From the NCBI GenBank assembly GCA_934167695.1, contig CAKPLP010000007.1, forward strand, positions 658 through 64,657: 64,000 bases of DNA, in the 5' to 3' direction. This document shows, piece by piece, positions 18,617-63,565 of the stretch (positions are counted from its first letter, which is position 1; each line of letters begins with the position of its first letter). The stretch is from an uncultured Bacilli bacterium. GTDB taxonomy: Bacteria; Bacillota_I; Bacilli_A; RF39; UBA660. The notes under the pieces are model-generated. The model did no database searches and was not told where the DNA came from. It saw nothing but the letters and a program-made list of their open reading frames with translations. The position numbers and the translations under genes were made by a program.

Positions 18617-18670
18617 AAATGTGATTTTTAATCACGTTTTAATATTTATACAAAGAAGGAGTGTATTTTG

Positions 18671-21600
18671 ATGAAAAATGATAAGAAAAAAATAGTATCG
18701 ATTGCAGGAATTTTATTTTTAGTTATTTTTGTAGTAGCAATAAGTTATGCAGCTTTTTCATATTCAAAAATAGGACGAGAGAATAAAATAACAACAGGTA
18801 CTATTAGTATGAACTATACTGAAGCAAATAACGGTCTTACAATAAATGAGGCCGTACCAACAACGGATGAAGAAGGAAAGATCCTTATTAGTCCTGGACA
18901 AGTATTTGACTTTACAGTAAGTATAGATATAGTAGGAGATTTCCAAGTTAGTTATGAGGTAGTAGCAGAAAAACAAGCATCATCAACTTTAGATGAAAAG
19001 TACGTAAAACTATACTTAGAAAGAGGCCTAGATGGTACAAACTATAGTGAAATAATGGAACCAAGTATATATGTAGGAATAGAAAAAGCAAGTGAGTTCG
19101 GAGCACCAACTGGTTCAATGATAATGGATACAGGTACAGTATCAAGTTCAACATTATATTATTATAGATTAAGGATGTGGCTAGACGAAAGCTATGAGTT
19201 AACATCAGAAGCAAAGAGCTTTACAGTTAAAGTAAATGTATATGGTACAACAGAAAAATATAAATTAGATAATGAAGGATTTGCTTGTACATTTAGTGAT
19301 AATGATACTTTATCTGTAGGTAATAAGAGTACTGTTGATTTAATATGTACAGATCAAACATCAGGTGTAGAGAAAAAACAACTTGCAATTTCAGACTTTG
19401 TAAATAGTGACTCAGAAGTAGGAGAGATAAAAGAAATAAGTAATCCAATAAAAATTAATGGAGGATATAAATATACCTTAACATTACAAGGAAAGAAAGC
19501 CGGCGAATTTAAATTAACATTGCCAGAAGGTAAGATAAGCGATAGATTAGGTAATAAAAATACAGAACAATCAAAAACATATAATGTAAGTAATACAATA
19601 TATAGAATAACTTATAAAATTGGTAAGAATGTTGAAACAATAGAAAAGGAATCTGATAGTTGTATAGTAAATGCAGATGGAAAGTGTGAAGTAACATTAC
19701 CATCTATTACTCCAAAAGCAGGATACACATCTTTAGGATGGAGTACAGAAGAAAATTCAGATACAGAAGGTTACAAAGAAAATACAAAATATGAAGTAAC
19801 AAGTAGTACAGTATTATATGCTCACGCTAAAGATATAACAGCACCAAAAGTAGTAATGGAAATAGAAGGCGATGAACAATATGATCAAAACAAAGAAGTA
19901 AAAGTAGACATAGTAGAAGAAGCAGGAGAAATAAGTGATGACGGTACTGTTGCATATGGATGGTCAACATCAAAAGATATAGAACCAACAACTTGGACAA
20001 CTGTAACATTTGCAGAAATGGAAAAAACAACAGGAAAATATACATTCAAAGCAACAGCAACAAACTTAACAGGAGAATATTACTTATTCGTAAAAGCAAA
20101 CTTAAAAGATAGTGTTGGTAACATTTCAAACGAAACAAAAATATCAACTAGTACATTTAAATTTGATAATGTAAAACCTATTTGTAAAATAACTGGAGAT
20201 AACACCATAATGGTAGAAGAAGCTAAAGAATTAACTTTAACTTGTACCGATGAAAACTCAAAAGTTATAGCAAAAGATTTAGATATAAGCAATATAGAAA
20301 TAAGTAATGATACAGGGAAAATATTATTAATCTCAGCAGCAACGAAAACCGAAAATGGTTATAAATATCAAATAAAACTAAAGGGATTAACAACAGGAAG
20401 TTTCAACGTAAGTTTAAAAGCAGGAATAATATCTGATAGCGCTGGAAATAAAAATGAAAAAGTAACAAGCGAGACAATAGAAGTAACAGGAAGAACCTAT
20501 ACAGCAACATACCAAAAGGGTAATAATATAGAGTCAATTAGTAGGGAAAGTGATACTTGTACAACTACTGGATCAAATACTAGTTGTGAAATAACTTTGC
20601 CTGAAATAGTAGCATCAGTAGGATATAGTCCTGCAGGATGGTATAATGAGGACAAGAGCAAACAAACAGCTCCAAATGCTAAATACACATTAACTAAAGA
20701 TGAAACATTAACAGCAGAAGCTGTAGTTAATAGTTATAAGGTAACTTATGACTATATGACAAACGGTGGAAGTGCTGTAAGTCAAAAAGAAGATAAAGTA
20801 AATTATAATAGTGCAGTAGACTTAAATGTAACAGCAACAAAAGATGGCTGGACATTTGTAGGATGGAATACAGACAAAGATGCAACAATAGGTCTAACAA
20901 GTCTAAAGATAGGTACAGAAGATGTAACCTTATATGCAATATTTAAAAAAGAAGTAACAGCAACATTTACTTATTATGATTCAGGACTAAAAAATGCAAC
21001 AACAAGTTGTGTAATGTACAATAATGAAACAGTATGTAATTACGAAATTCCAACAGTTGTAACATCAAGTGCTGGACCAAGTGAAACAGTATATAAAGGT
21101 GTTTCAACAAAAACATCAAGTACAGATTTAACTACAACATATAATAGTAATACAACAAAATACTATGCGGTATATGATGTTGTAAAAAGTGCAACATATT
21201 ATTATTACAATGGAACTACTCAAACAAGTACAACAGCAAGCGCTACAAGAACAGCATTAAGTGATGGAACAACATATAAAGTTACTGAAGGAAAAATAAC
21301 AATTCCAGAAGAAATAACAAAAAGCATAGGACCATCAAATGCAACATATAGTGGAATAGCAAGCTCAGTAAGTCAAACAACAAGTGCCGATAGTACAACA
21401 GCAAATAGTAAATACTATGCATACTATAGTGGAAAATGGAATATAAAATATGCCAAGGGTGCAGGAGTAAATACAATCGGATCAACAGGAACAACTTGTG
21501 ATAGTAATAAAGTTAGTAATGGAACAACATATCAAGAGACAAGTTGTGAAGTAACATTACCAGAAATAACAGCAGAATCAGGATACACAGTAACAGGATG

Positions 21601-24600
21601 GTACGAAGGATCAACAAAAGTAGGTAACGCAGGAGCAAAATACACAGTTAGTAAAGATGTAACATTAACGGCGCAAACAAATATAAATGCATATACAGTA
21701 ACTTATGACTATATGACAAACGGTGGAAGTGCTGTAAGTCAAAAAGAAGATAAAGTAAATTATAATAGTGCAGTAGACTTAAATGTAACAGCAACAAAAG
21801 ATGGCTGGACATTTGTAGGATGGAATACAGACAAAGATGCAACAATAGGTCTAACAAGTCTAAAGATAGGTACAGAAGATGTAACCTTATATGCAATATT
21901 TAAAAAAGAAGTAACAGCAACATTTACTTATTATGATTCAGGACTAAAAAATGCAACAACAAGTTGTGTAATGTACAATAATGAAACAGTATGTAATTAC
22001 GAAATTCCAACAGTTGTAACATCAAGTGCTGGACCAAGTGAAACAGTATATAAAGGTGTTTCAACAAAAACATCAAGTACAGATTTAACTACAACATATA
22101 ATAGTAATACAACAAAATACTATGCGGTATATGATGTTGTAAAAAGTGCAACATATTATTATTACAATGGAACTACTCAAACAAGTACAACAGCAAGCGC
22201 TACAAGAACAGCATTAAGTGATGGAACAACATATAAAGTTACTGAAGGAAAAATAACAATTCCAGAAGAAATAACAAAAAGCATAGGACCATCAAATGCA
22301 ACATATAGTGGAATAGCAAGCTCAGTAAGTCAAACAACAAGTGCCGATAGTACAACAGCAAATAGTAAATACTATGCATACTATAGTGGAAAATGGAATA
22401 TAAAATATGCCAAGGGTGCAGGAGTAAATACAATCGGATCAACAGGAACAACTTGTGATAGTAATAAAGTTAGTAATGGAACAACATATCAAGAGACAAG
22501 TTGTGAAGTAACATTACCAGAAATAACAGCAGAATCAGGATACACAGTAACAGGATGGTACGAAGGATCAACAAAAGTAGGTAACGCAGGAGCAAAATAC
22601 ACAGTTAGTAAAGATGTAACACTAACAGCGCAAACAAATATAAATGCATATACAGTAACTTATGACTATACAACAAATGGAGGAAATAGTGCAACAAAGA
22701 CAAGTGCAACAGTAAATTATAATAGTGCAATAGATCTAAGTGTAACAGCGACAAAAACAGGATATACATTTGTAGGATGGAATACAAATAAAGATGCAAC
22801 AACAGCACTAACAAGTTTAAAAATGGGGACAAGTAATATAACACTATATGCAATATTTAAAGATGCAACAGCACCAGTATGTAGTTTTGGAACAGCTCCA
22901 ACAATAAAATATGGATCAACAGGAACAATAACCTTAACTTGTACCGATAATGAACCTGGTATGAGTAGTCATACAATAGCTACAAGTGACTTAACGGTAT
23001 CAAATTCAAATGGTAGTATAACAGCAATAAGTGCACCAACAGCAGTAACAAAAGGATATACATATACAGTAACATTAAAAGGATTAACAGTAGGAACATT
23101 TACGGTAAGTTTAAATGAAAAAGTAATCAGTGATAAACTAGGAAATACAAATGTAAAGGCAACAAGCTCAAATGTAACAGTAGAAAAAATATCAGCAGTT
23201 AATCCAACGCTAACCGCATACACCGGTACATATGATGGGTCAAGTCATACAATCGAAGTAAGTGGAGGAAGTGGAGGTACTATTCAATATAGTACAGATA
23301 ACTCAACATGGTCTACAACAAAGCCTACAAGAACAAATGCCGGAACAACTACTGTATATGTTAGAGTTTTAGGTGATAGTAATCATAATACTACTTCATC
23401 AATTTCAGCAAATATAACAATTGCAAGAAAGTCAATAGAAGTTCCAACATGTACAGCAAAAACATATACAGGGGTAAGTCAAACTTTATTCAGTAGTGGT
23501 ACAGGATATACTGCAGGGGGAACAACAAGTGGAATAGATGCAGGAACATATACTGCAACAGCAACACCAACCGGAAATTACATGTGGAGTGATGGAACAA
23601 CAACTGCAAAGAATGTATCATGTAAAATAAATGCAAAAAGCGTAGCAGTAAGTTGGGGAACAACTACAACATTTACATATAGTGGAAGTGCTCAAGGACC
23701 AACAGTAAGTGCAGTAACAGGGGTAAGTGGAGAAACAGTAAACTTTACAAGAACAACAGCAACAAATGCCGGAAGTTATACATCAACAGCAAGCTGTAGT
23801 AGTGTAACAGGTGGAAGAGCAAAATGTGCAAATTATAGTTTAAGTGGTGCAACAAAGGCCTATACTATAAGTAAGAAAAGTATGACAAAACCAACAAGTC
23901 CAACAGCCAAGAACTATACAGGAAGCTCTCAAACAAGTGGAATAACATGTCCAACTGGAAGTACCGCAGGAGGAACAACAAGTGCAACAAATGCCGGAAC
24001 ATATAGTCAAACATGTACTCCAGATTCAAATCATATATGGAGTGATAATACAACCACTGCAGTATCAATATCATGGACAATAAATAAAGTAGCCGCAACA
24101 CTAACATGTAGTAATAAAACATATTCAGGAGTAAGTCAAACTGGATGTACATGTAGTGGTGGAACAATAGGTGGAACTTATTCAGGAATAGATGTAGGAA
24201 CATATACAGCAAGTTGTACAGCAGATTCAAATCATACATCACCAGCAAATAAAAGTTGGTCAGTATTAGCAAAAAGCGTAGCAGTAAGTTGGGGAACAAC
24301 TACAACATTTACATATAGTGGAAGTGCTCAAGGACCAACAGTAAGTGCAGTAACAGGGGTAAGTGGAGAAACAGTAAACTTTACAAGAACAACAGCAACA
24401 AATGCCGGAAGTTATACATCAACAGCAAGCTGTAGTAGTGTAACAGGTGGAAGAGCAAAATGTGCAAATTATAGTTTAAGTGGTGCAACAAAGGCCTATA
24501 CTATAAGTAAGAAAAGTATGACAAAACCAACAAGTCCAACAGCCAAGAACTATACAGGAAGCTCTCAAACAAGTGGAATAACATGTCCAACTGGAAGTAC

Positions 24601-25708
24601 CGCAGGAGGAACAACAAGTGCAACAAATGCCGGAACATATAGTCAAACGTGTACTCCAGATTCAAACCATATGTGGAGTGATAATACAACCGCTGCAGCA
24701 TCGATATCGTGGACAATAAATAAAATAGCAGCAGTTAATCCAACGCTAACCGCATACACTGGTACATATGATGGATCAAGTCATACAATCGGAGTAAGTG
24801 GAGGAAGTGGAGGTACTATCCAATATAGTACAAATAATTCTACATGGACTACTACAAAGCCTACAAGAACAGATGCAGGAACAACTACTGTATATGTTAG
24901 GGTTTTAGGTGATAGTAACCATAATACTACTTCAAGTATTAATGCAAAAATTACAATTAACAAAAAAACACCAACTGTTGTATTAACACCATCATCAGGA
25001 AAAGCCACAAAAGCTTCTTCACAAACAACATTTGAAGAACGAGCTGATGTAGCAGGTAAATTTTCAAATACAAGTGGAGCTGCAAGTATAGTATCTGTAG
25101 CACCAGCTACATATACAGATGTAGCTGCAAATACATCGCAAACAGTACATGTTGCAGGATTAGCAACTGGTACTGGTAATGTTGTAGTAACATTTACACC
25201 AACTAGTTCAAATTATGCAACTGTTACTAAAACATATTCGTTAACAAGTGATATTACTCTTCCAACATGGTCATTGGTAAGTGCAACAACTGAAACAATT
25301 TCAAAAACAGCAACTCCTCTTGAAACAATAACATTAAAAATAAAAGGAACTGATGATTCCGGTTCATCAACAAGTACACTAACAAATGATAATATTAAAG
25401 TTTACATAAACGGAAGTTTAGTAACGCCATCGAGCAAAGGTATATCAGCAACCGCAGGTGTAACAGGTGGTAAAGAGTATACAATATTAATAAGTGGTAT
25501 AAATTCAGCAGGTAGTATGACTGTTATGATTGACGCAGGTACATTAACAGATGCTGTTGGAAATGCAAGTGCCAAAGCATCAATAACAACAGGAATAACA
25601 ATTAGAAAATATACAGCATCTGAAGTAACATACAGTGGAACTTCAAGTGGAAGTAGTTGTACATCAGTACAATGTGCATTAGACGAAATTAGTAAAAAGG
25701 TAAGTTAG
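18671..25708 (+). CDS. Giant (2345 aa) secreted/cell-surface repeat protein
   Basis: N-terminal signal-anchor ending ISYAAFSYS. Next come a TasA-like module (GTISMNYTE...YYYRLRMWL), Ig-like modules ending ...D.(A/L)GN.N, GWxFVGWNT Listeria-Bacteroides-type repeats and many Yx(G)...NAGTY repeats. The C-terminal motif is VTYSGTSSGSSCTSVQCALDEI. No LPXTG. Confidence 0.85.
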   Translation: MKNDKKKIVSIAGILFLVIFVVAISYAAFSYSKIGRENKITTGTISMNYTEANNGLTINEAVPTTDEEGKILISPGQVFDFTVSIDIVGDFQVSYEVVAEKQASSTLDEKYVKLYLERGLDGTNYSEIMEPSIYVGIEKASEFGAPTGSMIMDTGTVSSSTLYYYRLRMWLDESYELTSEAKSFTVKVNVYGTTEKYKLDNEGFACTFSDNDTLSVGNKSTVDLICTDQTSGVEKKQLAISDFVNSDSEVGEIKEISNPIKINGGYKYTLTLQGKKAGEFKLTLPEGKISDRLGNKNTEQSKTYNVSNTIYRITYKIGKNVETIEKESDSCIVNADGKCEVTLPSITPKAGYTSLGWSTEENSDTEGYKENTKYEVTSSTVLYAHAKDITAPKVVMEIEGDEQYDQNKEVKVDIVEEAGEISDDGTVAYGWSTSKDIEPTTWTTVTFAEMEKTTGKYTFKATATNLTGEYYLFVKANLKDSVGNISNETKISTSTFKFDNVKPICKITGDNTIMVEEAKELTLTCTDENSKVIAKDLDISNIEISNDTGKILLISAATKTENGYKYQIKLKGLTTGSFNVSLKAGIISDSAGNKNEKVTSETIEVTGRTYTATYQKGNNIESISRESDTCTTTGSNTSCEITLPEIVASVGYSPAGWYNEDKSKQTAPNAKYTLTKDETLTAEAVVNSYKVTYDYMTNGGSAVSQKEDKVNYNSAVDLNVTATKDGWTFVGWNTDKDATIGLTSLKIGTEDVTLYAIFKKEVTATFTYYDSGLKNATTSCVMYNNETVCNYEIPTVVTSSAGPSETVYKGVSTKTSSTDLTTTYNSNTTKYYAVYDVVKSATYYYYNGTTQTSTTASATRTALSDGTTYKVTEGKITIPEEITKSIGPSNATYSGIASSVSQTTSADSTTANSKYYAYYSGKWNIKYAKGAGVNTIGSTGTTCDSNKVSNGTTYQETSCEVTLPEITAESGYTVTGWYEGSTKVGNAGAKYTVSKDVTLTAQTNINAYTVTYDYMTNGGSAVSQKEDKVNYNSAVDLNVTATKDGWTFVGWNTDKDATIGLTSLKIGTEDVTLYAIFKKEVTATFTYYDSGLKNATTSCVMYNNETVCNYEIPTVVTSSAGPSETVYKGVSTKTSSTDLTTTYNSNTTKYYAVYDVVKSATYYYYNGTTQTSTTASATRTALSDGTTYKVTEGKITIPEEITKSIGPSNATYSGIASSVSQTTSADSTTANSKYYAYYSGKWNIKYAKGAGVNTIGSTGTTCDSNKVSNGTTYQETSCEVTLPEITAESGYTVTGWYEGSTKVGNAGAKYTVSKDVTLTAQTNINAYTVTYDYTTNGGNSATKTSATVNYNSAIDLSVTATKTGYTFVGWNTNKDATTALTSLKMGTSNITLYAIFKDATAPVCSFGTAPTIKYGSTGTITLTCTDNEPGMSSHTIATSDLTVSNSNGSITAISAPTAVTKGYTYTVTLKGLTVGTFTVSLNEKVISDKLGNTNVKATSSNVTVEKISAVNPTLTAYTGTYDGSSHTIEVSGGSGGTIQYSTDNSTWSTTKPTRTNAGTTTVYVRVLGDSNHNTTSSISANITIARKSIEVPTCTAKTYTGVSQTLFSSGTGYTAGGTTSGIDAGTYTATATPTGNYMWSDGTTTAKNVSCKINAKSVAVSWGTTTTFTYSGSAQGPTVSAVTGVSGETVNFTRTTATNAGSYTSTASCSSVTGGRAKCANYSLSGATKAYTISKKSMTKPTSPTAKNYTGSSQTSGITCPTGSTAGGTTSATNAGTYSQTCTPDSNHIWSDNTTTAVSISWTINKVAATLTCSNKTYSGVSQTGCTCSGGTIGGTYSGIDVGTYTASCTADSNHTSPANKSWSVLAKSVAVSWGTTTTFTYSGSAQGPTVSAVTGVSGETVNFTRTTATNAGSYTSTASCSSVTGGRAKCANYSLSGATKAYTISKKSMTKPTSPTAKNYTGSSQTSGITCPTGSTAGGTTSATNAGTYSQTCTPDSNHMWSDNTTAAASISWTINKIAAVNPTLTAYTGTYDGSSHTIGVSGGSGGTIQYSTNNSTWTTTKPTRTDAGTTTVYVRVLGDSNHNTTSSINAKITINKKTPTVVLTPSSGKATKASSQTTFEERADVAGKFSNTSGAASIVSVAPATYTDVAANTSQTVHVAGLATGTGNVVVTFTPTSSNYATVTKTYSLTSDITLPTWSLVSATTETISKTATPLETITLKIKGTDDSGSSTSTLTNDNIKVYINGSLVTPSSKGISATAGVTGGKEYTILISGINSAGSMTVMIDAGTLTDAVGNASAKASITTGITIRKYTASEVTYSGTSSGSSCTSVQCALDEISKKVS
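20741..22654 (+). repeat. Near-identical tandem duplication, 2 x 957 bp (319 aa), plus a diverged partial third unit from 22655
   Basis: gtaacttatgactatatgac... recurs at 20741 and 21698 (offset 957). A diverged copy starts at 22655. The translated units are identical. Only a few differences were noticed, near the unit ends (acattaacggcg versus acactaacagcg). Confidence 0.9.
23636..24660 (+). repeat. Near-identical ~385-bp segment present twice, offset 636 bp
   Basis: aaaagcgtagcagtaagttgggg... appears at 23636 and 24272. The protein stretch KSVAVSWGTTTTFTYSGSAQGPTVSAV...NAGTYSQTCTPDSNH is repeated verbatim. Confidence 0.85.
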
Positions 25709-48313: not shown

Positions 48314-48721
48314 TTAGCATAAATCAACAAATACATCAGGATGACACTGTAATGCACTAACACAGTTTAAATCAATAGTGAAAAACTGTCTAGTAGCTGT
48401 ATAAGTATCATCACCATTATCAATTAATATTCTGCAAGTACAGCAGCAATTATCAACTTTTTCTGCTCTAAATACTGTTGAAGTAGCAGTTGTCTCATTA
48501 ATCGTATATTGTATATTCCAAAGTTCACCAGATTGACAATTATAAAAACTCAAAGGTCTAGTATTATAGCATTCACAACTTAAAGTAGGACCCAAGAAAG
48601 GTTTGTCACATCCTTCACTACAGCAAGTATCAGCATCCATATTTTGAAGATTTACAATTTCTCGTATTAATTCAGACAAACAACAACTTCTATCAGCATT
48701 ATTTTCATTTCCACAGCACAT
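48314..48721 (-). CDS. CotY/CotZ-family cysteine-rich spore coat/exosporium protein
   Basis: 135 aa and Cys-rich. CCSEGCDKPFLGPT, VFRAEKVDNCCCTCRIL and IDLNCVSALQC are colinear with Bacillus CotZ/CotY (CPTGC..., FFRVE..C..CATLSIL, EVDL.CFCAI.CL). SD AGGAGG. Confidence 0.75.
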   Translation of the reverse strand: MCCGNENNADRSCCLSELIREIVNLQNMDADTCCSEGCDKPFLGPTLSCECYNTRPLSFYNCQSGELWNIQYTINETTATSTVFRAEKVDNCCCTCRILIDNGDDTYTATRQFFTIDLNCVSALQCHPDVFVDLC

Positions 48722-48734
48722 ATTTAATTCCTCC

Positions 48735-49130
48735 TTAACAAATATTTTCTAAAGCAAGATCACTTAAGCAAGAAACTACACACATACATTTTAAATTAAC
48801 AGTAACAAAATTATTAGTAGCCGAATATGTTTGTGTAGTAGTATCAAATGCTAAAATTCTAAGCTTAGCACAGCAATCACATACATGTTCTACCCTAAAA
48901 ACACTACTAGTATTAGCAGTACCACCAGAAGTATAATTTACTGTAAATAAACTACCATTACATGTATATAAAGTTATTGGTCTAGTGTTATAGCAAGTGT
49001 TTATTTGAGTAGGCCCTAAGAATGGTTTATCACACCCCTCACTACAACAAGAGTCAACAGTTGAATTTTTTTGCAGTATTTCAATAACTTTTAGAATTTT
49101 AGCAACGCAGCAACTATCATTATTAACCAT
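48735..49130 (-). CDS. CotY/CotZ-family cysteine-rich spore coat/exosporium protein (tandem paralog)
   Basis: Same motifs (CCSEGCDKPFLGPT, VFRVEHVCDCCAKLRIL, VNLKCMCVVSCL). ATG 49130 is preferred because the GTG at 49139 lies inside the SD AGAGGTG. Confidence 0.75.
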   Translation of the reverse strand: MVNNDSCCVAKILKVIEILQKNSTVDSCCSEGCDKPFLGPTQINTCYNTRPITLYTCNGSLFTVNYTSGGTANTSSVFRVEHVCDCCAKLRILAFDTTTQTYSATNNFVTVNLKCMCVVSCLSDLALENIC

Positions 49131-49156
49131 TATATCCACCTCTTAACTTTCTAGTA

Positions 49157-49292: not shown

Positions 49293-49321
49293 TTGATACT
49301 GGCATTAAATTATTATATACT
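49293..49321 (+). promoter_or_regulatory. SigmaA-type promoter of leader/surface-protein gene A
   Basis: TTGATA, 17 nt, TATACT. The identical arrangement is conserved at 62425-62453. Confidence 0.55.
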
Positions 49322-49349
49322 TACTATAATATAATAATTAGGAGGAAGT

Positions 49350-49465
49350 ATGAGAGCGTCAATCAAATGTTCTAGTGGGGGGGGGGGGCACTTTACTAGA
49401 ACAATAAATATATTTAGAGATACATAACTTTTGTAGTATAGAAAGATATGAAAGGAGTGTATTAA
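49350..49465 (+). promoter_or_regulatory. Conserved 5' leader with a 25-codon mini-ORF (49350-49427), a G12 tract and a hairpin
   Basis: AGGAGG-aagt-ATG, encoding MRASIKCSSGGGGHFTRTINIFRDT*. Hairpin arms GTTCTAGT (49369-76) and ACTAGAAC (49395-402) enclose G12+CACTTT. Confidence 0.6.
49377..49388 (+). repeat. Homopolymeric G12 tract
   Basis: Counted directly: tctagt + 12 g + cac. This is very unusual in an AT-rich background. Confidence 0.95.
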
Positions 49466-50395
49466 ATGAAAAAAATAAAGAAGAAATATATACTTATAAT
49501 TATAGGAATACTAATAGGATTAGTAATTTCAGTAGGTGGGGTATATGCTGCAGTAACCATTACAGGAAGTAATGTAACATATTCAAATTCTTCCTCAGGT
49601 CTAACTTCAACGACAGTACAAGGAGCAATCGATGAATTAAATAATAAAACAGATATAAGGAAAATGTCCAATTTTGTTTCAGTATATAAATATAGCACAG
49701 CAACATCAACAAAATGTATCACAGGAGAAGAAGATACATGTGTAAAATCAACTTGCCACAAAACTAAAACAAGTGGAAGTTGTCCCGCGGGAACAATAAT
49801 AAAATATAAAGTAAATGATGCTACAGTAGTAACATTCCATGTAATGTTTGACAATGGAAGTACCTTAACAATGCAAAGTCAGAAAAATATCTCCTACAAC
49901 TCGGCATGGTATGGTACTAGTACAAGTGATACTAATACATCAGGCCCCATGTCCTTATTACCATTGTTAGAAAGTATAACTGCAGGCTGGAGTAATGTCA
50001 ATAATCAAACATATACAATGGGTACAACAGTATTTAAAACAAATGCATACACCGGATGTAGTGACTATAACAGTTGTACAACCAATACTTATACTTTAGC
50101 ATCAAGAACATCAAAAGCTCGTATGATAACAGTACAAGAAGCAGCTGCCTTAGGATGTTTAGGTATTTCTACGCCAAAATCATGCCCAATCTGGATGTAT
50201 AATTATTTAAATAACTCAACAAGTTATGGTGGCACAATAAATGATAGTACAGCATCATCTGGTTACTGGACAATGTCCGCTTCTACCAATTCTTTAGTTG
50301 GTGCCTTTTTCATATATTATTATGGCCAGTTGCGATATGATAATTATGTTTGCAGAACACTTGGAGCTAGAGCAGTAGTAGTAGTTTCAAAATAA
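49466..50395 (+). CDS. Secreted Cys-rich lectin-like surface protein, paralog A
   Basis: Signal ending SVGGVYAAVTITG, motif SNVTYSNSSSGLTSTTVQGAIDELN, a Cys-rich core, and C-terminal ...GYWTMS...GARAVVVVSK. Paralog of 62594-63565 and of the C-terminal half of 54436-55773. Confidence 0.75.
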   Translation: MKKIKKKYILIIIGILIGLVISVGGVYAAVTITGSNVTYSNSSSGLTSTTVQGAIDELNNKTDIRKMSNFVSVYKYSTATSTKCITGEEDTCVKSTCHKTKTSGSCPAGTIIKYKVNDATVVTFHVMFDNGSTLTMQSQKNISYNSAWYGTSTSDTNTSGPMSLLPLLESITAGWSNVNNQTYTMGTTVFKTNAYTGCSDYNSCTTNTYTLASRTSKARMITVQEAAALGCLGISTPKSCPIWMYNYLNNSTSYGGTINDSTASSGYWTMSASTNSLVGAFFIYYYGQLRYDNYVCRTLGARAVVVVSK

Positions 50396-50407: not shown

Positions 50408-50436
50408 TTGCAAAATTACAAAAAATATGCTATAAT
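50408..50436 (+). promoter_or_regulatory. Near-consensus sigmaA promoter with extended -10
   Basis: TTGCAA, 17 nt (ending TGc), TATAAT. Confidence 0.6.
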
Positions 50437-50477
50437 ATAGCAGTTTTTTGAAAAAAAGAGGGGGAAAAATAATAAGT

Positions 50478-51554
50478 ATGAAAAATAAAGAACTATTTAT
50501 AGATGGCTACAAACTACCACAACCACTATCAAAGGATGAAACAAACAGACTACTAAAAGAAGTAAGTGAAGGATCAACAACTGCTAGACAATTACTAGCA
50601 GTTCATAATATTCGCTTTGTTATAAAAGAAGTATTAAATACATTCGCTACTGTTGAATATGATAAAGATGAATTAGTATCTATAGGAAATATTGGATTGT
50701 TAAAGGCTATTGATAATTATGATTTAACAAAAGGAGTTAATTTTCTTACCTATACCGTTAGATGTATCGATAATGAAATATTAATGTTTTTAAGAAAATT
50801 AACAAAAGCAAGAAATACAGATAGTTTAGAAAAAGTAATAGGCAATAACGAGGATGGCAGTGAAACAAAATTAAAAGATATATTAAGTACTGATAATGAC
50901 TTATTAGAAAATAAAGAAAAAATTGAAACCTATAAAGCAATTAGAGAAATAGTAAAAAACTTACCAAAAACAGAAAAAGAAATTATAATGTTATATTTTG
51001 GGTTCTATGATGATCAGGTATATACACAAAAGGAAATTGCAGAAGCATTACATCTTTCACAATCATATGTATCAAGAGTTATAAAACGTGCAGTAGAACA
51101 AATCGGTATGGAATTACAATCTCGTGAATTTATAGAACTATCTAAAAAGAAAAAGAAACAACCAAAAGGAAAAAATAATGGTATACAATCAATTTATGAA
51201 TATTTTGAAGAATATACAAAAGAACAAATAAATGATATGTTAGCAAAATTATCATCAGAAGAAATTGAACTAGTTAAATTAAGATATGGTGAAGATCTAG
51301 AAAAGCCAGTACGATTAAAATTAAAAGAAGAATACAAAAATAAATTCTATGGTTATTTACTTCCAAGAATGAAAAAAATGTTAGCAAATCCTGATGTGGA
51401 ATTTAAAAGAGTACATAGAGATCCTAAAAATAAAAAAAATAATTTATCAAGAAAAAAACCAATATCACAAATTTTAGAATTAAATAATAACCAAAACGAG
51501 TTTTTAACTAATGAGAAAAATAATCAATATCAATTAGTAAAACATACTAAATAA
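50478..51554 (+). CDS. Sigma-70 family sigma factor (SigE/SigK-like core) with a ~135-aa C-terminal extension
   Basis: LPQPLSKDETNRLL..., SIGNIGLLKAIDNYD, TYTVRCIDNEILMFLRK (region 2) and TQKEIAEALHLSQSYVSRVIKRA (region 4.2). Then a K-rich linker and SIYEYFEEYTKEQINDMLAKLSSEEIELVKLRYGEDL. Confidence 0.8.
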   Translation: MKNKELFIDGYKLPQPLSKDETNRLLKEVSEGSTTARQLLAVHNIRFVIKEVLNTFATVEYDKDELVSIGNIGLLKAIDNYDLTKGVNFLTYTVRCIDNEILMFLRKLTKARNTDSLEKVIGNNEDGSETKLKDILSTDNDLLENKEKIETYKAIREIVKNLPKTEKEIIMLYFGFYDDQVYTQKEIAEALHLSQSYVSRVIKRAVEQIGMELQSREFIELSKKKKKQPKGKNNGIQSIYEYFEEYTKEQINDMLAKLSSEEIELVKLRYGEDLEKPVRLKLKEEYKNKFYGYLLPRMKKMLANPDVEFKRVHRDPKNKKNNLSRKKPISQILELNNNQNEFLTNEKNNQYQLVKHTK

Positions 51555-59517: not shown

Positions 59518-59546
59518 TTGACAAAAAAGCTTATTTATGATAAAAT
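59518..59546 (+). promoter_or_regulatory. Near-consensus sigmaA promoter with extended -10 driving the large ncRNA
   Basis: TTGACA (59518-23), 17 nt ending TGa, TAAAAT (59541-46). Confidence 0.65.
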
Positions 59547-59551
59547 GAGCA

Positions 59552-60139
59552 GTAATTGATGGCACATTATTCTAGTCAATTACTTTATTATGAGGACGGG
59601 GATAAATTACCGTTAAAGAGCACATCTATGAAACCTTTGGTGTTTGCTTTAAATGCCCAATTTGGGGTGGATGCTGAAGATGAGAATAATGGGCGAGGTG
59701 TAATGGCATATACCAGCCGACCCACTATTCGCGGAGACCTATTTGCGTGGTAAGCCTATACGGTTTACTGACGGACTTATTACGGAATAGGACTAAACCT
59801 ACTTTGTGGCGAAAGTTATGAGTAGCGTAGCTTGTCTTGAGTGAGAGCTTTGGGATTAGCAATAATTAGATAATATAAAATAGGCCAATTTTATATTATC
59901 TACTATGAAATTACTCTTGCAAAAAAGAATTAATAATAAAGTGTTGTTGAGGAAAGCTCCTAGGGTGTTATCGAATATGGGATTGCAGTGGGCACTAAGT
60001 GGTAATCAAGTCGTATAGAACTTCTATACTTATATTTTTAAAGGGGAACCGCACTACTGGTAACGGTATGTAAATATAAGGGAAATCCTACTTGACCTAA
60101 GGCCCAAAGTTAACCATATAAGAAGCCATCATTTTTTTT
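59552..60139 (+). ncRNA. Large (~580 nt) structured non-coding RNA; candidate OLE-class RNA
   Basis: 705-bp gap with markedly higher GC than its flanks. The only ORF has no SD. Multiple perfect helices are present (59551-59/59576-84, 59845-51/59953-59, 59867-81/59888-902, 60013-19/60023-29). A possible closing helix is TGATGGC 59557-63 / GCCATCA 60125-31. A small 4-TM protein gene follows directly. Confidence 0.6.
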
Positions 60140-60159
60140 GACTAAAAAAAGAGGATTTT

Positions 60160-60753
60160 ATGAAAAGAAAAAGGGAAAATATTCTAAAAAACTTACAAGT
60201 TCAAACAAAGAAAAAAGAAAAAATAAAAAAAGAAAAAGTAAATATTAAATGGATTATCGAAATATGTATAACTTCATTTTTAATATCAATATTTATGTCA
60301 TTACTAAGTGAAACAACTCTAAATAATGTAAATCTATTAATTTCACTAATTATTACATTAGTATTCATTTTTATAGGAATACTATTCGATATAATAGGTG
60401 TTGCAGTAACTAGTAGTGATGAAAAAGTATTTCACTCTATGAGTTCTAGAAAAGTAAAAGGTTCAAAAATCGCTGTTAAGTTAAAGAAAAATGCCGAAAA
60501 AACATCATCATTTTGTTGTGATGTAATAGGAGATATATGCGGAGTATTATCAGGAACAAGTGGAGTAGTAATTGCAACAAACATTGTTAAATTAACAAAT
60601 TATAATAGTTTGATTGTAACATTACTAACAACGGCTACCATCGCTTCCTTAACCATTACAGGAAAAGCAATCGGTAAAAGTTTTGCAATAAATAAAAGTA
60701 ATATAATTCTTTATGAATTTTCAAAAGTAGTATCATATTTTTATAAAGGTTAA
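60160..60753 (+). CDS. Small 4-TM membrane protein, candidate OapA (OLE-associated protein A)
   Basis: 197 aa (~21-22 kDa). Basic N-terminus, four predicted TM helices, and a repeated D(I/V)IG motif in TM2/TM3 (FDIIGVAV, CDVIGDICG). Located 20 nt after the ncRNA. Confidence 0.5.
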   Translation: MKRKRENILKNLQVQTKKKEKIKKEKVNIKWIIEICITSFLISIFMSLLSETTLNNVNLLISLIITLVFIFIGILFDIIGVAVTSSDEKVFHSMSSRKVKGSKIAVKLKKNAEKTSSFCCDVIGDICGVLSGTSGVVIATNIVKLTNYNSLIVTLLTTATIASLTITGKAIGKSFAINKSNIILYEFSKVVSYFYKG

Positions 60754-61734: not shown

Positions 61735-62385
61735 ATGACAAATAAACATCATCTACTTGGTGAAGGTAGAGAAGGAAAAGTTTATCTACTAAACGATGAG
61801 GCAATTAAGATATATAATTATACTTGTGATAAAAGAAGACTAAATAAAGAAGATGCTACAAAATTAAGCAAAATTAAAACAAAAAGAATTTTAACACCTA
61901 CGAGAATTTTTTTAGATAAGGAAAAAGAAATAAAAGGATACTCTACAAAATATATTGAAAATTTAAATATAAATAATTTATTAATATTAAAAAGAGAACT
62001 TTTATTAAAAGAATTATCCATTTTAAAAGAAGATTTATTATTGTTAAGTGATAATAATATTTTAGTAGAAGACTTTAATAAAGATAATACTTGTTTTAAT
62101 AATGGTATTTATCTAATAGATCCCGGAAGTTATGAATGTGATTATGATTTAGATAAAAATCAGATTTTGGGTAAAAATATAGAAATAATGAATGAATTTT
62201 TATTAGATATTATGGCATGGTGTAGTCACGAATTAACAAAAAATACTTTTACTGATAGAAAATTAACACAGGAAATATTTCATGATTATATTGAAAAGAA
62301 ATATCCTGACTTAATAGAATATTTAAAAGAAAATGTAAAAGAAAATAATAATATATCGGAATTTATATATAAGAAAACTAAGTAG
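61735..62385 (+). CDS. Minimal protein-kinase-like protein (Bud32/RIO-size)
   Basis: G-loop LLGEGREGKVY, AIKIY lysine, VEDFNKDN catalytic-loop-like segment, and LIDPGS (DFG-like). 216 aa. Confidence 0.55.
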   Translation: MTNKHHLLGEGREGKVYLLNDEAIKIYNYTCDKRRLNKEDATKLSKIKTKRILTPTRIFLDKEKEIKGYSTKYIENLNINNLLILKRELLLKELSILKEDLLLLSDNNILVEDFNKDNTCFNNGIYLIDPGSYECDYDLDKNQILGKNIEIMNEFLLDIMAWCSHELTKNTFTDRKLTQEIFHDYIEKKYPDLIEYLKENVKENNNISEFIYKKTK

Positions 62386-62412
62386 AGATTAAAGAAATAT
62401 ACTTAGTTTTTT
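62376..62412 (+). terminator. Rho-independent terminator
   Basis: AACTAAGTA-n15-TACTTAGTT plus TTTT. Confidence 0.55.
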
Positions 62413-62424
62413 ATTTTAGATATC

Positions 62425-62453
62425 TTGATACTGCTATTAAAATATTGTATACT
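62425..62453 (+). promoter_or_regulatory. SigmaA-type promoter of leader/surface-protein gene B
   Basis: TTGATA, 17 nt, TATACT. Homology to locus A starts exactly at this promoter. Confidence 0.55.
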
Positions 62454-62479
62454 TTAGTAGATTAATAATAGGAGGAAGT

Positions 62480-62593
62480 ATGAGAGTGTCAATCAAATGT
62501 TCTATTGGGGGGGGGTCACTTTAGTAGAACAATAAATATATTTAGAGATACATAACTTTTGTAGTATAGAAAAATATGAAAGGAGTGTATTAA
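62480..62593 (+). promoter_or_regulatory. Conserved 5' leader, copy B, with a 14-codon mini-ORF (62480-62524), a G9 tract and a hairpin
   Basis: AGGAGG-aagt-ATG, encoding MRVSIKCSIGGGSL*. Arms GTTCTATT (62499-506) and AGTAGAAC (62523-530) enclose G9+TCACTTT. Confidence 0.6.
62507..62515 (+). repeat. Homopolymeric G9 tract
   Basis: Counted directly: tctatt + 9 g + tcac. Confidence 0.95.
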
Positions 62594-63565
62594 ATGAATA
62601 AAAAAATTATATTTATAGTTCTAGTAATACTAATAGGACTAGTAATTTCAGTAGGAGGAGTATATGCTGCAGTAACCATTACAGGAAGCAATATAACTTA
62701 CTCCAATTCATCTTCAGGATTATCCTCAACGACAGTACAAGCAGCAATCGACGAATTAAATACAAAGACGGATATAAGAAAAATGGGAAATTTCATAGGA
62801 GTGTATAAATACAGTACGGCAACATCAACTAAGTGTATCACAGGAGAAGAATCAACTTGTGTAAAATCTACTTGCTATAAAACTAAAACAAGCGGTAGTT
62901 GTCCAGCGGGAACAATCGTAAAATATAAAGTAAATGATGCAACAGTGGTAAATTTTCATGTAATGTATGATAATGGATCTACTATGACTATGCAAAGCCA
63001 AAAAAATACAATATACAATATACCTTGGATAAGTAAAGAAGATTATACAACAGCAAATACTAATGGAACAAGTTGTAGTTATGACTCTTGCAGTGATGAA
63101 GGACCACTAACGATACTAAAAGCATTAGAATCAGTAACTGCAGGGTGGAGCAATGTCAACAATCAAACATATACAATAGGTACAACAGTATTTAAAACTA
63201 ATGCATACACTAGTTGTAATAGTTACAATTCATGTAGTGGCAACGCCTATACCTTAGCATCAAGAACCGCAAAAGCCAGAATAATAACATTACAGGAAGT
63301 TGCAAACTTGGGTTGCTCATCGATATCTGCATGCCCAATTTGGATGTATAATTACCTCTTTAATTCAGTAGAATCTGGAGGAACAATAAATGATACTGCT
63401 TATGGACCAAATTGGAGTAACAATGCCGGTTATTGGACAATAACAGGAACAAGCAATACACCTCATGGTGCATGGCGTGTATCAGCCGGAGATGAACCAG
63501 TTACAATTAGAGCTACTGCTGCTCCATATTATGGTGCCAGAGCAGTTGTCGTAGTATCAAAATAG
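62594..63565 (+). CDS. Secreted Cys-rich lectin-like surface protein, paralog B
   Basis: The N-terminal ~130 aa are closely similar (most positions identical by eye) to 49466-50395. The middle is divergent. The C-terminus reads GYWTITGTSNTPHGAWRVSAGDEPVTIRATAAPYYGARAVVVVSK. Confidence 0.75.
   Translation: MNKKIIFIVLVILIGLVISVGGVYAAVTITGSNITYSNSSSGLSSTTVQAAIDELNTKTDIRKMGNFIGVYKYSTATSTKCITGEESTCVKSTCYKTKTSGSCPAGTIVKYKVNDATVVNFHVMYDNGSTMTMQSQKNTIYNIPWISKEDYTTANTNGTSCSYDSCSDEGPLTILKALESVTAGWSNVNNQTYTIGTTVFKTNAYTSCNSYNSCSGNAYTLASRTAKARIITLQEVANLGCSSISACPIWMYNYLFNSVESGGTINDTAYGPNWSNNAGYWTITGTSNTPHGAWRVSAGDEPVTIRATAAPYYGARAVVVVSK

Follow-up and report, generated by a model that had tools for sequence, protein, structure and literature searches.

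Phase variation has been well studied in a few pathogens but barely in uncultured low-GC gut Bacillota. Repeat tracts in promoter spacers are known from porA and opc of Neisseria meningitidis, hif of Haemophilus influenzae and vlp of Mycoplasma hyorhinis; pilC of Neisseria gonorrhoeae is a contingency locus with an intragenic homopolymeric tract, and uspA1 of Moraxella carries poly-G in its 5' untranslated region. Translational coupling by unmasking of a hidden Shine-Dalgarno (SD) sequence is familiar from rpmI-rplT and from the coat-replicase pair of phage MS2. Intragenic poly-G contingency loci also include Neisseria lgt (PMC2192423) and members of the Campylobacter phasome (PMC6321876), and the G repeat in the leader of Helicobacter pylori tlpB is untranslated and is targeted by the C/U-rich small RNA (sRNA) RepG (PMC8295292). 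In the pil1 locus of Streptococcus gallolyticus, changes in a GCAGA repeat within a leader-peptide gene move its stop codon from 39 bp before a stem-loop to a position within or after it, and the stem-loop is melted by ribosomes (Danne et al. 2014, PMC3894217). Here we describe two related leaders of about 175 nt each, copy A and copy B, in a 64,000-nucleotide stretch of contig CAKPLP010000007.1 from an uncultured Bacilli bacterium; this whole stretch is called the window below. Each leader contains a long G tract, which is very probably a phase-variation device of some kind in the gene family concerned. We propose, with the chances about evenly balanced, that in the window the element is a simple sequence repeat phase-variation module in which the frame of an upstream open reading frame (uORF, or mini-ORF) gates a helix masking the SD of a gene for a membrane-anchored surface protein.

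Layout of the two leaders

Both leaders present the same succession of elements (Table 1). A promoter-like pair of hexamers with a fixed 17-nt spacer is followed by the SD AGGAGG, by the ATG of the mini-ORF 4 nt 3' of it, by the G tract at codons 10–13 of this frame and about 55 nt 3' of the -10 hexamer, and finally by the main gene, whose own SD, AAAGGAG, stands 8 nt before its ATG. For copy B, the match to consensus and the conservation in copy A and in the related loci L036 and L039 suggest that the promoter is functional. The segment of about 57 nt between tract and gene holds stop codons in all three frames, a second SD and a second ATG; because this segment parts the tract from the gene, the tract of the window copies sits in an upstream ORF. 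We call this layout decoupled, and besides window copies A and B it is found in L036, L043-45 (two genes), L046-49 and L037. Fusion of the mini-ORF to the main ORF at other tract lengths was rejected for the window copies, since stops occur in all three frames at most 40 nt from the tract. A second promoter with the tract in its spacer was rejected as well: the hexamers TTCTAG...TACTAG/TAGTAG are poor, and the promoter scans did not report them.

Reading and aligning the two loci bore out much of an earlier note on this DNA, namely the tract lengths of G9 followed by T in copy B and G12 in copy A, the 14 codons of the copy B mini-ORF with its stop, and the presence of the promoter spacing, SD and mini-ORF in both leaders. 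The same note had homology between the copies begin exactly at the -35 hexamer and end at the main ATG. The start holds roughly, lying 3–4 nt before the hexamer; the end does not, as about 83% nucleotide identity runs on past the main ATG over the first ~120 codons.

Table 1 Positions of the leader elements and main genes of copies A and B in the window.
Feature	Copy	Position	Strand	Details
Promoter-like pair	B	62425-62453	+	TTGATA 62425-62430, 17-nt spacer, TATACT 62448-62453; promoter scan 10/12
Promoter-like pair	A	49293-49321	+	TTGATA, 17-nt spacer, TATACT; promoter scan
uORF	B	62470-62524	+	SD AGGAGG 62470-62475, ATG 62480, stop TAG 62522-62524; 14 codons (MRVSIKCSIGGGSL), short frame
uORF	A	49340-49427	+	SD AGGAGG 49340-49345, ATG 49350, stop TAA 49425-49427; 25 codons (MRASIKCSSGGGGHFTRTINIFRDT), long frame
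G tract	B	62507-62515	+	G9, then T at 62516
G tract	A	49377-49388	+	G12
Hairpin 1	B	62498-62531	+	13-bp stem UGUUCUAUUGGGG / CUUUAGUAGAACA around the remaining tract; free energy -14.4 kcal/mol, z -4.75
Hairpin 1	A	49368-49403	+	free energy -16.0 kcal/mol, z -6.5
Hairpin 2	B	62547-62591	+	GAUACAU 62547-62553 / GUGUAUU 62585-62591 and CUUUUGUA 62556-62563 / UAUGAAAG 62575-62582
Main SD	B	62579-62585	+	AAAGGAG, inside hairpin 2
Long-frame stop, if used	B	62553-62555	+	TAA
Hairpin 2	A	49419-49463	+	over main SD 49451-49457
Main gene	B	62594-63565	+	323 amino acids; N-terminal membrane helix, Cys-rich extracellular part, no Pfam family
Main gene	A	49466-50395	+	309 amino acids; paralog of B, 66% amino-acid identity

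Around the copy B promoter, a minus-strand promoter-like site (TTGACA-16-TATTAT, 62465-62492, 11/12 matches) overlaps the start of the mini-ORF. It was rejected as probably due to chance, being conserved neither in copy A (TTGACG) nor in L036. Directly 5' of the promoter lies a plus-strand hairpin with a T run (62374-62411, aaactaagta...tacttagtttttt) that is common to L036 and L039. It probably terminates the gene before it; the terminator scan missed it because its stem is A+T-rich.

A helix over the main SD and the frame of the uORF

Folding of the whole leader placed a 16-bp helix, hairpin 2, just 5' of the main ATG, with the main SD in its 3' strand. Such a helix is predicted in every decoupled leader at -12 to -16 kcal/mol with z-scores of -5 to -7, the weaker one of L037 (-7.4 kcal/mol) apart. 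Folded alone, it reaches -12.3 kcal/mol in both A and B, -13.4 in L043 and -16.0 in L038, with z-scores of -5.2 (copy B) to -7.3. We aligned seven distinct decoupled leaders over this region without a gap. The 16 pairs are formed in 93.8% of the cells, against 36–57% when the partners are slid by 1–3 columns, and in three to four pairs both bases differ between the window lineage and that of L043 (U-A to C-G, A-U to U-A). The resulting co-variation score was reached by 0 of 500 shuffles. Apart from L037, sequences of one lineage differ from each other in loops or unpaired columns. Across the two lineages sampled, the pairs of hairpin 2 thus appear to be maintained by compensatory changes. Such changes had been claimed by the earlier note for the hairpin around the tract (see below); hairpin 2, in which they sit, was absent from it.

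A covariance-model search of 337 kb for further copies of hairpin 2 returned the known leaders only, together with a marginal match in L051. At that locus (1400-1503) the tract-less paralog P0012 keeps an SD-covering helix, AUACAUC / GGUGUAU, together with a leaderless-looking ORF of 27 codons whose start is 7 nt past the -10 hexamer and whose UAA stop immediately precedes the SD. The leaders had no match at gathering score in Rfam 15, and a permissive Rfam scan gave a sole sub-threshold match, to PreQ1 on the opposite strand (17.9 bits, threshold 39). Hairpin 2 lacks a U tract on its 3' side, and scans found no terminator-like site in either leader; without a U tract and without a scan match, either hairpin as an intrinsic terminator was rejected.

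The frame of the uORF is set by the number of bases between TGTTCTNNN and ACTTT. With 13 nt, as in window copy A and L046-48, the uORF has 25 codons and its stop falls 6 nt into the 5' strand of hairpin 2. With 12 nt (L043/L045@2779) it has 18 codons and stops 14 nt upstream of the hairpin, and with 11 nt (window copy B, L036 and L043-45@1387) it has 14–15 codons and stops 22–25 nt upstream. All three frames are thus represented among the decoupled modules, and only the length class of copy A reaches hairpin 2. The long-frame stop occupies the same column in both lineages, as UAA in the window and as UGA in L043/L046. In L037 the tract has decayed to GAGGGGTGG and is fixed in the long frame; the usual long-frame stop is lost, and the uORF extends as far as a UAG that lies 20 nt 5' of the main ATG. 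This locus has the weak helix mentioned above, and its SD is weaker too. Such a combination would fit the model as a locked-on allele.

The model itself can be put as follows. The TTGATA-17-TATACT promoter would yield a transcript with a strong SD, an ATG and the G tract near its 5' end; in some paralogs this tract stands at the real start of the protein, where its length would put the gene in or out of frame. In the window the main SD would be locked in the 16-bp hairpin 2, and replication slippage in the G tract would change the frame of the uORF. In the 13-nt frame of copy A, a ribosome terminating after 25 codons on the 5' strand of hairpin 2 would free the SD and the gene would be translated. 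In the other two frames the ribosome would be released 14 nt or, as in copy B, 22–25 nt upstream, the helix would stay closed or only partly opened, and translation would be poor. On this frame model, copy A is predicted to be on and copy B to be off or low. Ribosome footprints and SD-masking helices are established knowledge, on which the helix-opening step draws.

The same tract at three positions in one gene family

The main genes belong to a large family found in metagenome-assembled genomes (MAGs) of uncultured gut 'Bacilli', 'Clostridia', 'Erysipelotrichaceae' and 'Tenericutes' from human, mouse, rabbit and rumen, with several copies per genome. The tract takes three positions in it. The first is the promoter spacer, where G8–G12 stands between TTGACA and TATAAT/TATACT and the spacers measure 17–22 nt; this type comprises L001, L003, L004, L006, L007, L008, L013 and L015, which are more distant members of the family. 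The second is the 5' end of the coding sequence (CDS), in L039, L040, L052 and L043@48. In this fused type the SD, the ATG and the codons for 'M(R/K)xxIKCSS' are followed by the tract, which continues into GGG(H/Y)F(S/T)RT(I/V)NIFKKNYK and a membrane helix. The third is the decoupled position of the window copies.

The assembled tract lengths of this fused type are out of frame. Gene callers therefore place the start codon within the tract, at a GTG (P0004 and P0011, 'MGGG...'), or at a more internal position (P0121), with the consequence that on and off alleles of one gene look like different proteins. By comparison, P0021 at L041 has an interrupted tract (GGGGAGGGGGG) and is locked in frame from a strong ATG (MKKTIKCSSGEGGHFTRTINIFKKNYK...). 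One cluster at 90% identity holds both an in-frame allele, P0126 (MRVSIKCSSGGGHFSRT...), and an out-of-frame allele, P0011 at L040 (G9+T); another holds N-terminal variants of 333, 311 and 343 amino acids.

The SD and ATG of the window uORF are those that start the full-length protein in the fused P0021 and P0126. The mini-ORF is homologous to the true 5' end of the fused paralogs, because the same SD-ATG-tract segment opens their CDS, and it is best taken, judging from sequence, as the displaced 5' coding end of a phase-variable gene. The description of a leader with a mini-ORF given in the earlier note was hence incomplete, as the segment is the true CDS 5' end in L039, L040, L041 and L052. 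A change of tract length would clearly alter expression in the relatives, through the promoter spacer or the CDS frame, and in the window copies such an effect would depend on the proposed uORF coupling. Tentatively, one may go further and picture one G-tract module redeployed at three levels within one family (promoter spacer, coding frame, uORF), with the window showing a homopolymer-gated translational switch that might have three expression levels; we hold this to be possible rather than probable.

Scans of metagenomes of the Joint Genome Institute (JGI) for the 5' module and for hairpin 2 gave no match, so the lineage is absent from that collection.

Some further observations concern the modules of relatives. 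In L044 (2700-2760), from one Hadza sample, the third tandem family gene has lost the whole G-tract module, the leader and the N-terminal membrane helix in comparison with L043/L045 (2760-2960). The deletion is bounded by two TAGGAGGA repeats, located in the SD and in the SVGG codons, and reads as recombinational silencing or remodelling of a copy. Assembly breaks tend to fall at the tract: where L004 and L006 have G8 and G10, L005 shows a run of N (~2935), and contigs L038, L042 and L049 begin at or just past the tract. Poly-G sequencing problems or length heterogeneity could be the cause. Leaders of the promoter-spacer type in L007, L009, L023 and L003 have in common the motif gtaagaacatacgacaNNaaacgactata, located 60–100 nt 5' of the gene and containing an acgac direct repeat. 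The motif occurs whether a G tract is present or not, and may represent an operator or some other RNA element.

Rarity of the tract and constraint on the leader

The two leader tracts are the only runs of at least seven G in the 64 kb of the window, which has a G+C content of about 26%; 0.3 such runs would be expected by chance. In 344 kb of related DNA, 25 of 25 runs of at least eight G are in the coding strand, each at the 5' end of a family gene, and no C runs occur. Relatives carry G7 to G12 at the position of the copy B tract. These data support the view of the earlier note that the tract is the length-variable part of the leader, and a functionally relevant one.

Leaving the tract aside, the 104 positions from the mini-ORF ATG to the main ATG show 4 differences between copies A and B, against 19 differences at 53 four-fold degenerate sites in the adjoining CDS (Fisher p = 2.6e-7). 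The comparison supports constraint on the leader, which had also been claimed before, and suggests that it is about ten times more conserved than synonymous sites.

Alternative explanations

Several observations weigh against a uORF-gated switch in the window. Replicate samples of one decoupled locus share their tract length (G12 in all four of L046-49, G9 in all three of L043-45, and G9 in both window B and L036), so switching at decoupled loci has not been seen directly. The decoupled loci L037 and L046 do differ in tract, and homopolymer lengths in metagenome assemblies may be off by one. The co-variation of hairpin 2 stems essentially from two lineages, the seven distinct sequences having an effective number of 2.4. 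A similar helix covers the SD of the tract-less L051. The helix therefore predates the uORF arrangement, and its purpose might be a different one. In addition, the mini-ORF start of L036 is mosaic. In the first four codons copy B and this ortholog differ by 4 nt (ATGAGAGTGTCA in window 62480-62493 vs ATGAAAAAAACA in L036 2887-2900), and the L036 version is identical to that of L041 and L043, which indicates patchy gene conversion among modules. The high identity of the A and B leaders could thus come partly from gene conversion between paralogous modules, and since modules are exchanged among paralogs, concerted evolution may inflate the apparent conservation.

The constant tract length in all samples of a locus, the helix of the tract-less paralog and the shuffling of modules would all suit a relic, that is, the stranded 5' end of a once-fused phase-variable gene, with the main gene now constitutive from its own SD and ATG and the tract without effect. 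The good SD of the main ORF and the decayed tract of L037 speak for it too. We nevertheless regard a relic as rather unlikely: uninterrupted tracts of G9–G12 are kept in five of six independent decoupled loci in a genome of 26% GC, the leader is conserved to the degree described above, both lineages have the long-frame stop on the helix, and each of the three frames occurs.

Action at the level of RNA or transcription, without translation of the uORF, appears quite unlikely. It could take the form of mRNA stability, of elongation or pausing, of an effect of hairpin 1, or of binding by a C/U-rich sRNA, for which the poly-G of uspA1 and the RepG-targeted repeat of tlpB provide known parallels, and it draws on the facts that the tract lies in the transcribed leader and is partly paired in hairpin 1, that G runs resemble SD sequences and that complementarity exists between CACUUU, just past the tract, and GGAGUG of the main SD. 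However, a change in tract length alters only the loop of hairpin 1 (8 vs 10 nt) and changes the energy little, no terminator follows either hairpin, and the strong SD and ATG before the tract as well as the placement of the stops would stay unexplained. No run of at least five C that could serve as a partner occurs on either strand elsewhere in the window; a RepG-like C-rich partner was rejected on that ground.

Hairpin 1 calls for separate treatment, since the earlier note had built its case on it. The hairpin around the tract is present, and its stem is longer than the note had it, 13 bp, because the first four G of the tract pair with CUUU. Its inverted repeat TGTTCTA...TAGAACA is invariant in 11 of 11 transcribed modules and absent from the promoter-spacer tracts. 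L052 keeps it despite a one-nucleotide shift of the upstream frame, so the conservation is at the nucleotide level. We take hairpin 1 to be a real conserved inverted repeat on this comparison. The note had further read one pair, G-C in copy A (49375/49396) and U.G in copy B (62505/62524), as a double change that keeps the stem through co-variation. The bases are as it gave them, but the claim rested on two sequences. Across nine inverted-repeat pairs in 11 independent modules, eight pairs never vary, which is uninformative either way, and the disputed pair is G-C in five modules (window A, L041, L043@1387, L043@2779 and L052), U.G in window B only, a G/G mismatch in L036, L039 and L040, and an A/C mismatch in L046-48 and L037. 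It is thus mismatched in five of the 11 modules, and among these L036, the ortholog of B with a 97% identical protein, carries the very single-change state that was supposed to be forbidden. No compensatory change was found at any pair, so co-variation gives no sign that this stem is selected, and the states of A and B are more readily explained by two separate single changes, each starting from an AGT/AGT mismatch. That hairpin 1 and its G-rich loop form a selected structured RNA, such as a protein or ligand site kept by compensatory evolution, is very unlikely despite the invariant repeat, its absence from promoter-spacer tracts and the strong fold (z -4.7 to -6.5), given the unpaired state of its sole variable pair in those five modules, the absence of any compensating pair and of an Rfam match, and the close relatedness of the modules, whose invariance may just reflect recent ancestry or gene conversion.

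Gene product and neighbourhood

Pfam and PDB-sequence searches with the main proteins gave no significant match; for one family member there was a weak match to Pfam Lcl_C. From an alignment of 36 sequences, AlphaFold2 returned a model with a predicted local distance difference test (pLDDT) of 82.7 and a predicted template modelling score (pTM) of 0.79, consisting of an N-terminal membrane helix and a mixed alpha/beta extracellular part. The best fold match in the PDB was the Thomasclavelia ramosa IgA peptidase 9qa6 (E 0.011, probability 0.97, template modelling score 0.37), followed by weak C-type-lectin-like matches. We take the product to be a Cys-rich membrane-anchored surface protein, with variable antigen or adhesin as a plausible role.

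The window comes from a spore-forming Firmicute and contains OLE RNA and CotZ genes. A full-length OLE (ornate, large, extremophilic) RNA lies at 59543-60145 (+, 377 bits), and directly after it an ORF (60160-60753) encodes a 197-amino-acid membrane protein with a weak CNNM match. This is the usual position of OLE-associated protein genes. Copy A is flanked on one side by a gene for a 368-amino-acid sigma-70-family protein (50448-51554, +) with regions 2 and 4, a long C-terminal extension and a promoter-like site at 50408-50436, and on the other side by two divergently oriented CotZ-like spore-coat genes (48314-49139, -). In addition, an ORF of 2346 amino acids (18668-25708, +), with a local G+C of 0.31–0.35 vs ~0.26 elsewhere, may encode a giant surface or repeat protein.

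Comparison with known systems

If our proposal is true, it extends the single described case of leader-peptide phase variation, pil1, with a homopolymer in place of pentanucleotide repeats and SD unmasking in place of transcription termination. The data also suggest a route by which such a switch may originate, in which an intragenic contingency tract is parted from its gene. Furthermore, they flag a large, multi-copy family of Cys-rich surface proteins as a likely set of variable antigens or adhesins in gut commensals. In the literature searched we did not find a homopolymer in a uORF that switches through SD unmasking, which does not prove that such a switch is new to the literature.

Both the fused relatives and those with the tract in the promoter spacer are classical contingency loci. 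L039, L040, L041, L052 and the P0126/P0011 pair have the exact layout of the intragenic poly-G systems, where a G tract near the 5' end of a surface-related gene toggles its frame. The window copies differ by the three-frame stops and the second SD and ATG between tract and gene, and a frame change therefore cannot truncate the window protein directly. The likeness to promoter-spacer systems is likewise found in distant family members, with G8–G12 in spacers of 17–22 nt, whereas the spacer of the window promoters is fixed at 17 nt. With tlpB the window shares a variable G repeat in the transcribed leader of the regulated gene, but here the repeat lies in an ORF with a strong SD, and no C-rich partner is visible in the window. 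As in rpmI-rplT and MS2, upstream translation would open a helix that hides a downstream SD; the coupling in those systems is constitutive or feedback-regulated, without a hypermutable repeat as a gate.

The comparison with pil1 goes furthest. In both systems the repeat lies in a leader ORF with its own ribosome-binding site and ATG, taken here to be translated, and a stem-loop separates this ORF from the gene. The stop codon of the short peptide lies well before the stem-loop (39 bp in pil1, 14–25 nt here), the frame-shifted longer peptide ends in the stem-loop, which a ribosome could melt, and the target is a surface structure of a gut Firmicute. In contrast to the 22 GCAGA units of pil1, the repeat here is a G homopolymer, and the window module is visibly derived from the intragenic tract of its paralogs. 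The stem-loop of pil1 is a premature terminator, whereas the one described here lacks a U tract and covers the SD; control would therefore act on translation initiation, not on transcription termination. By analogy, the element would work like pil1 but be of another type, since it fails the terminator feature.

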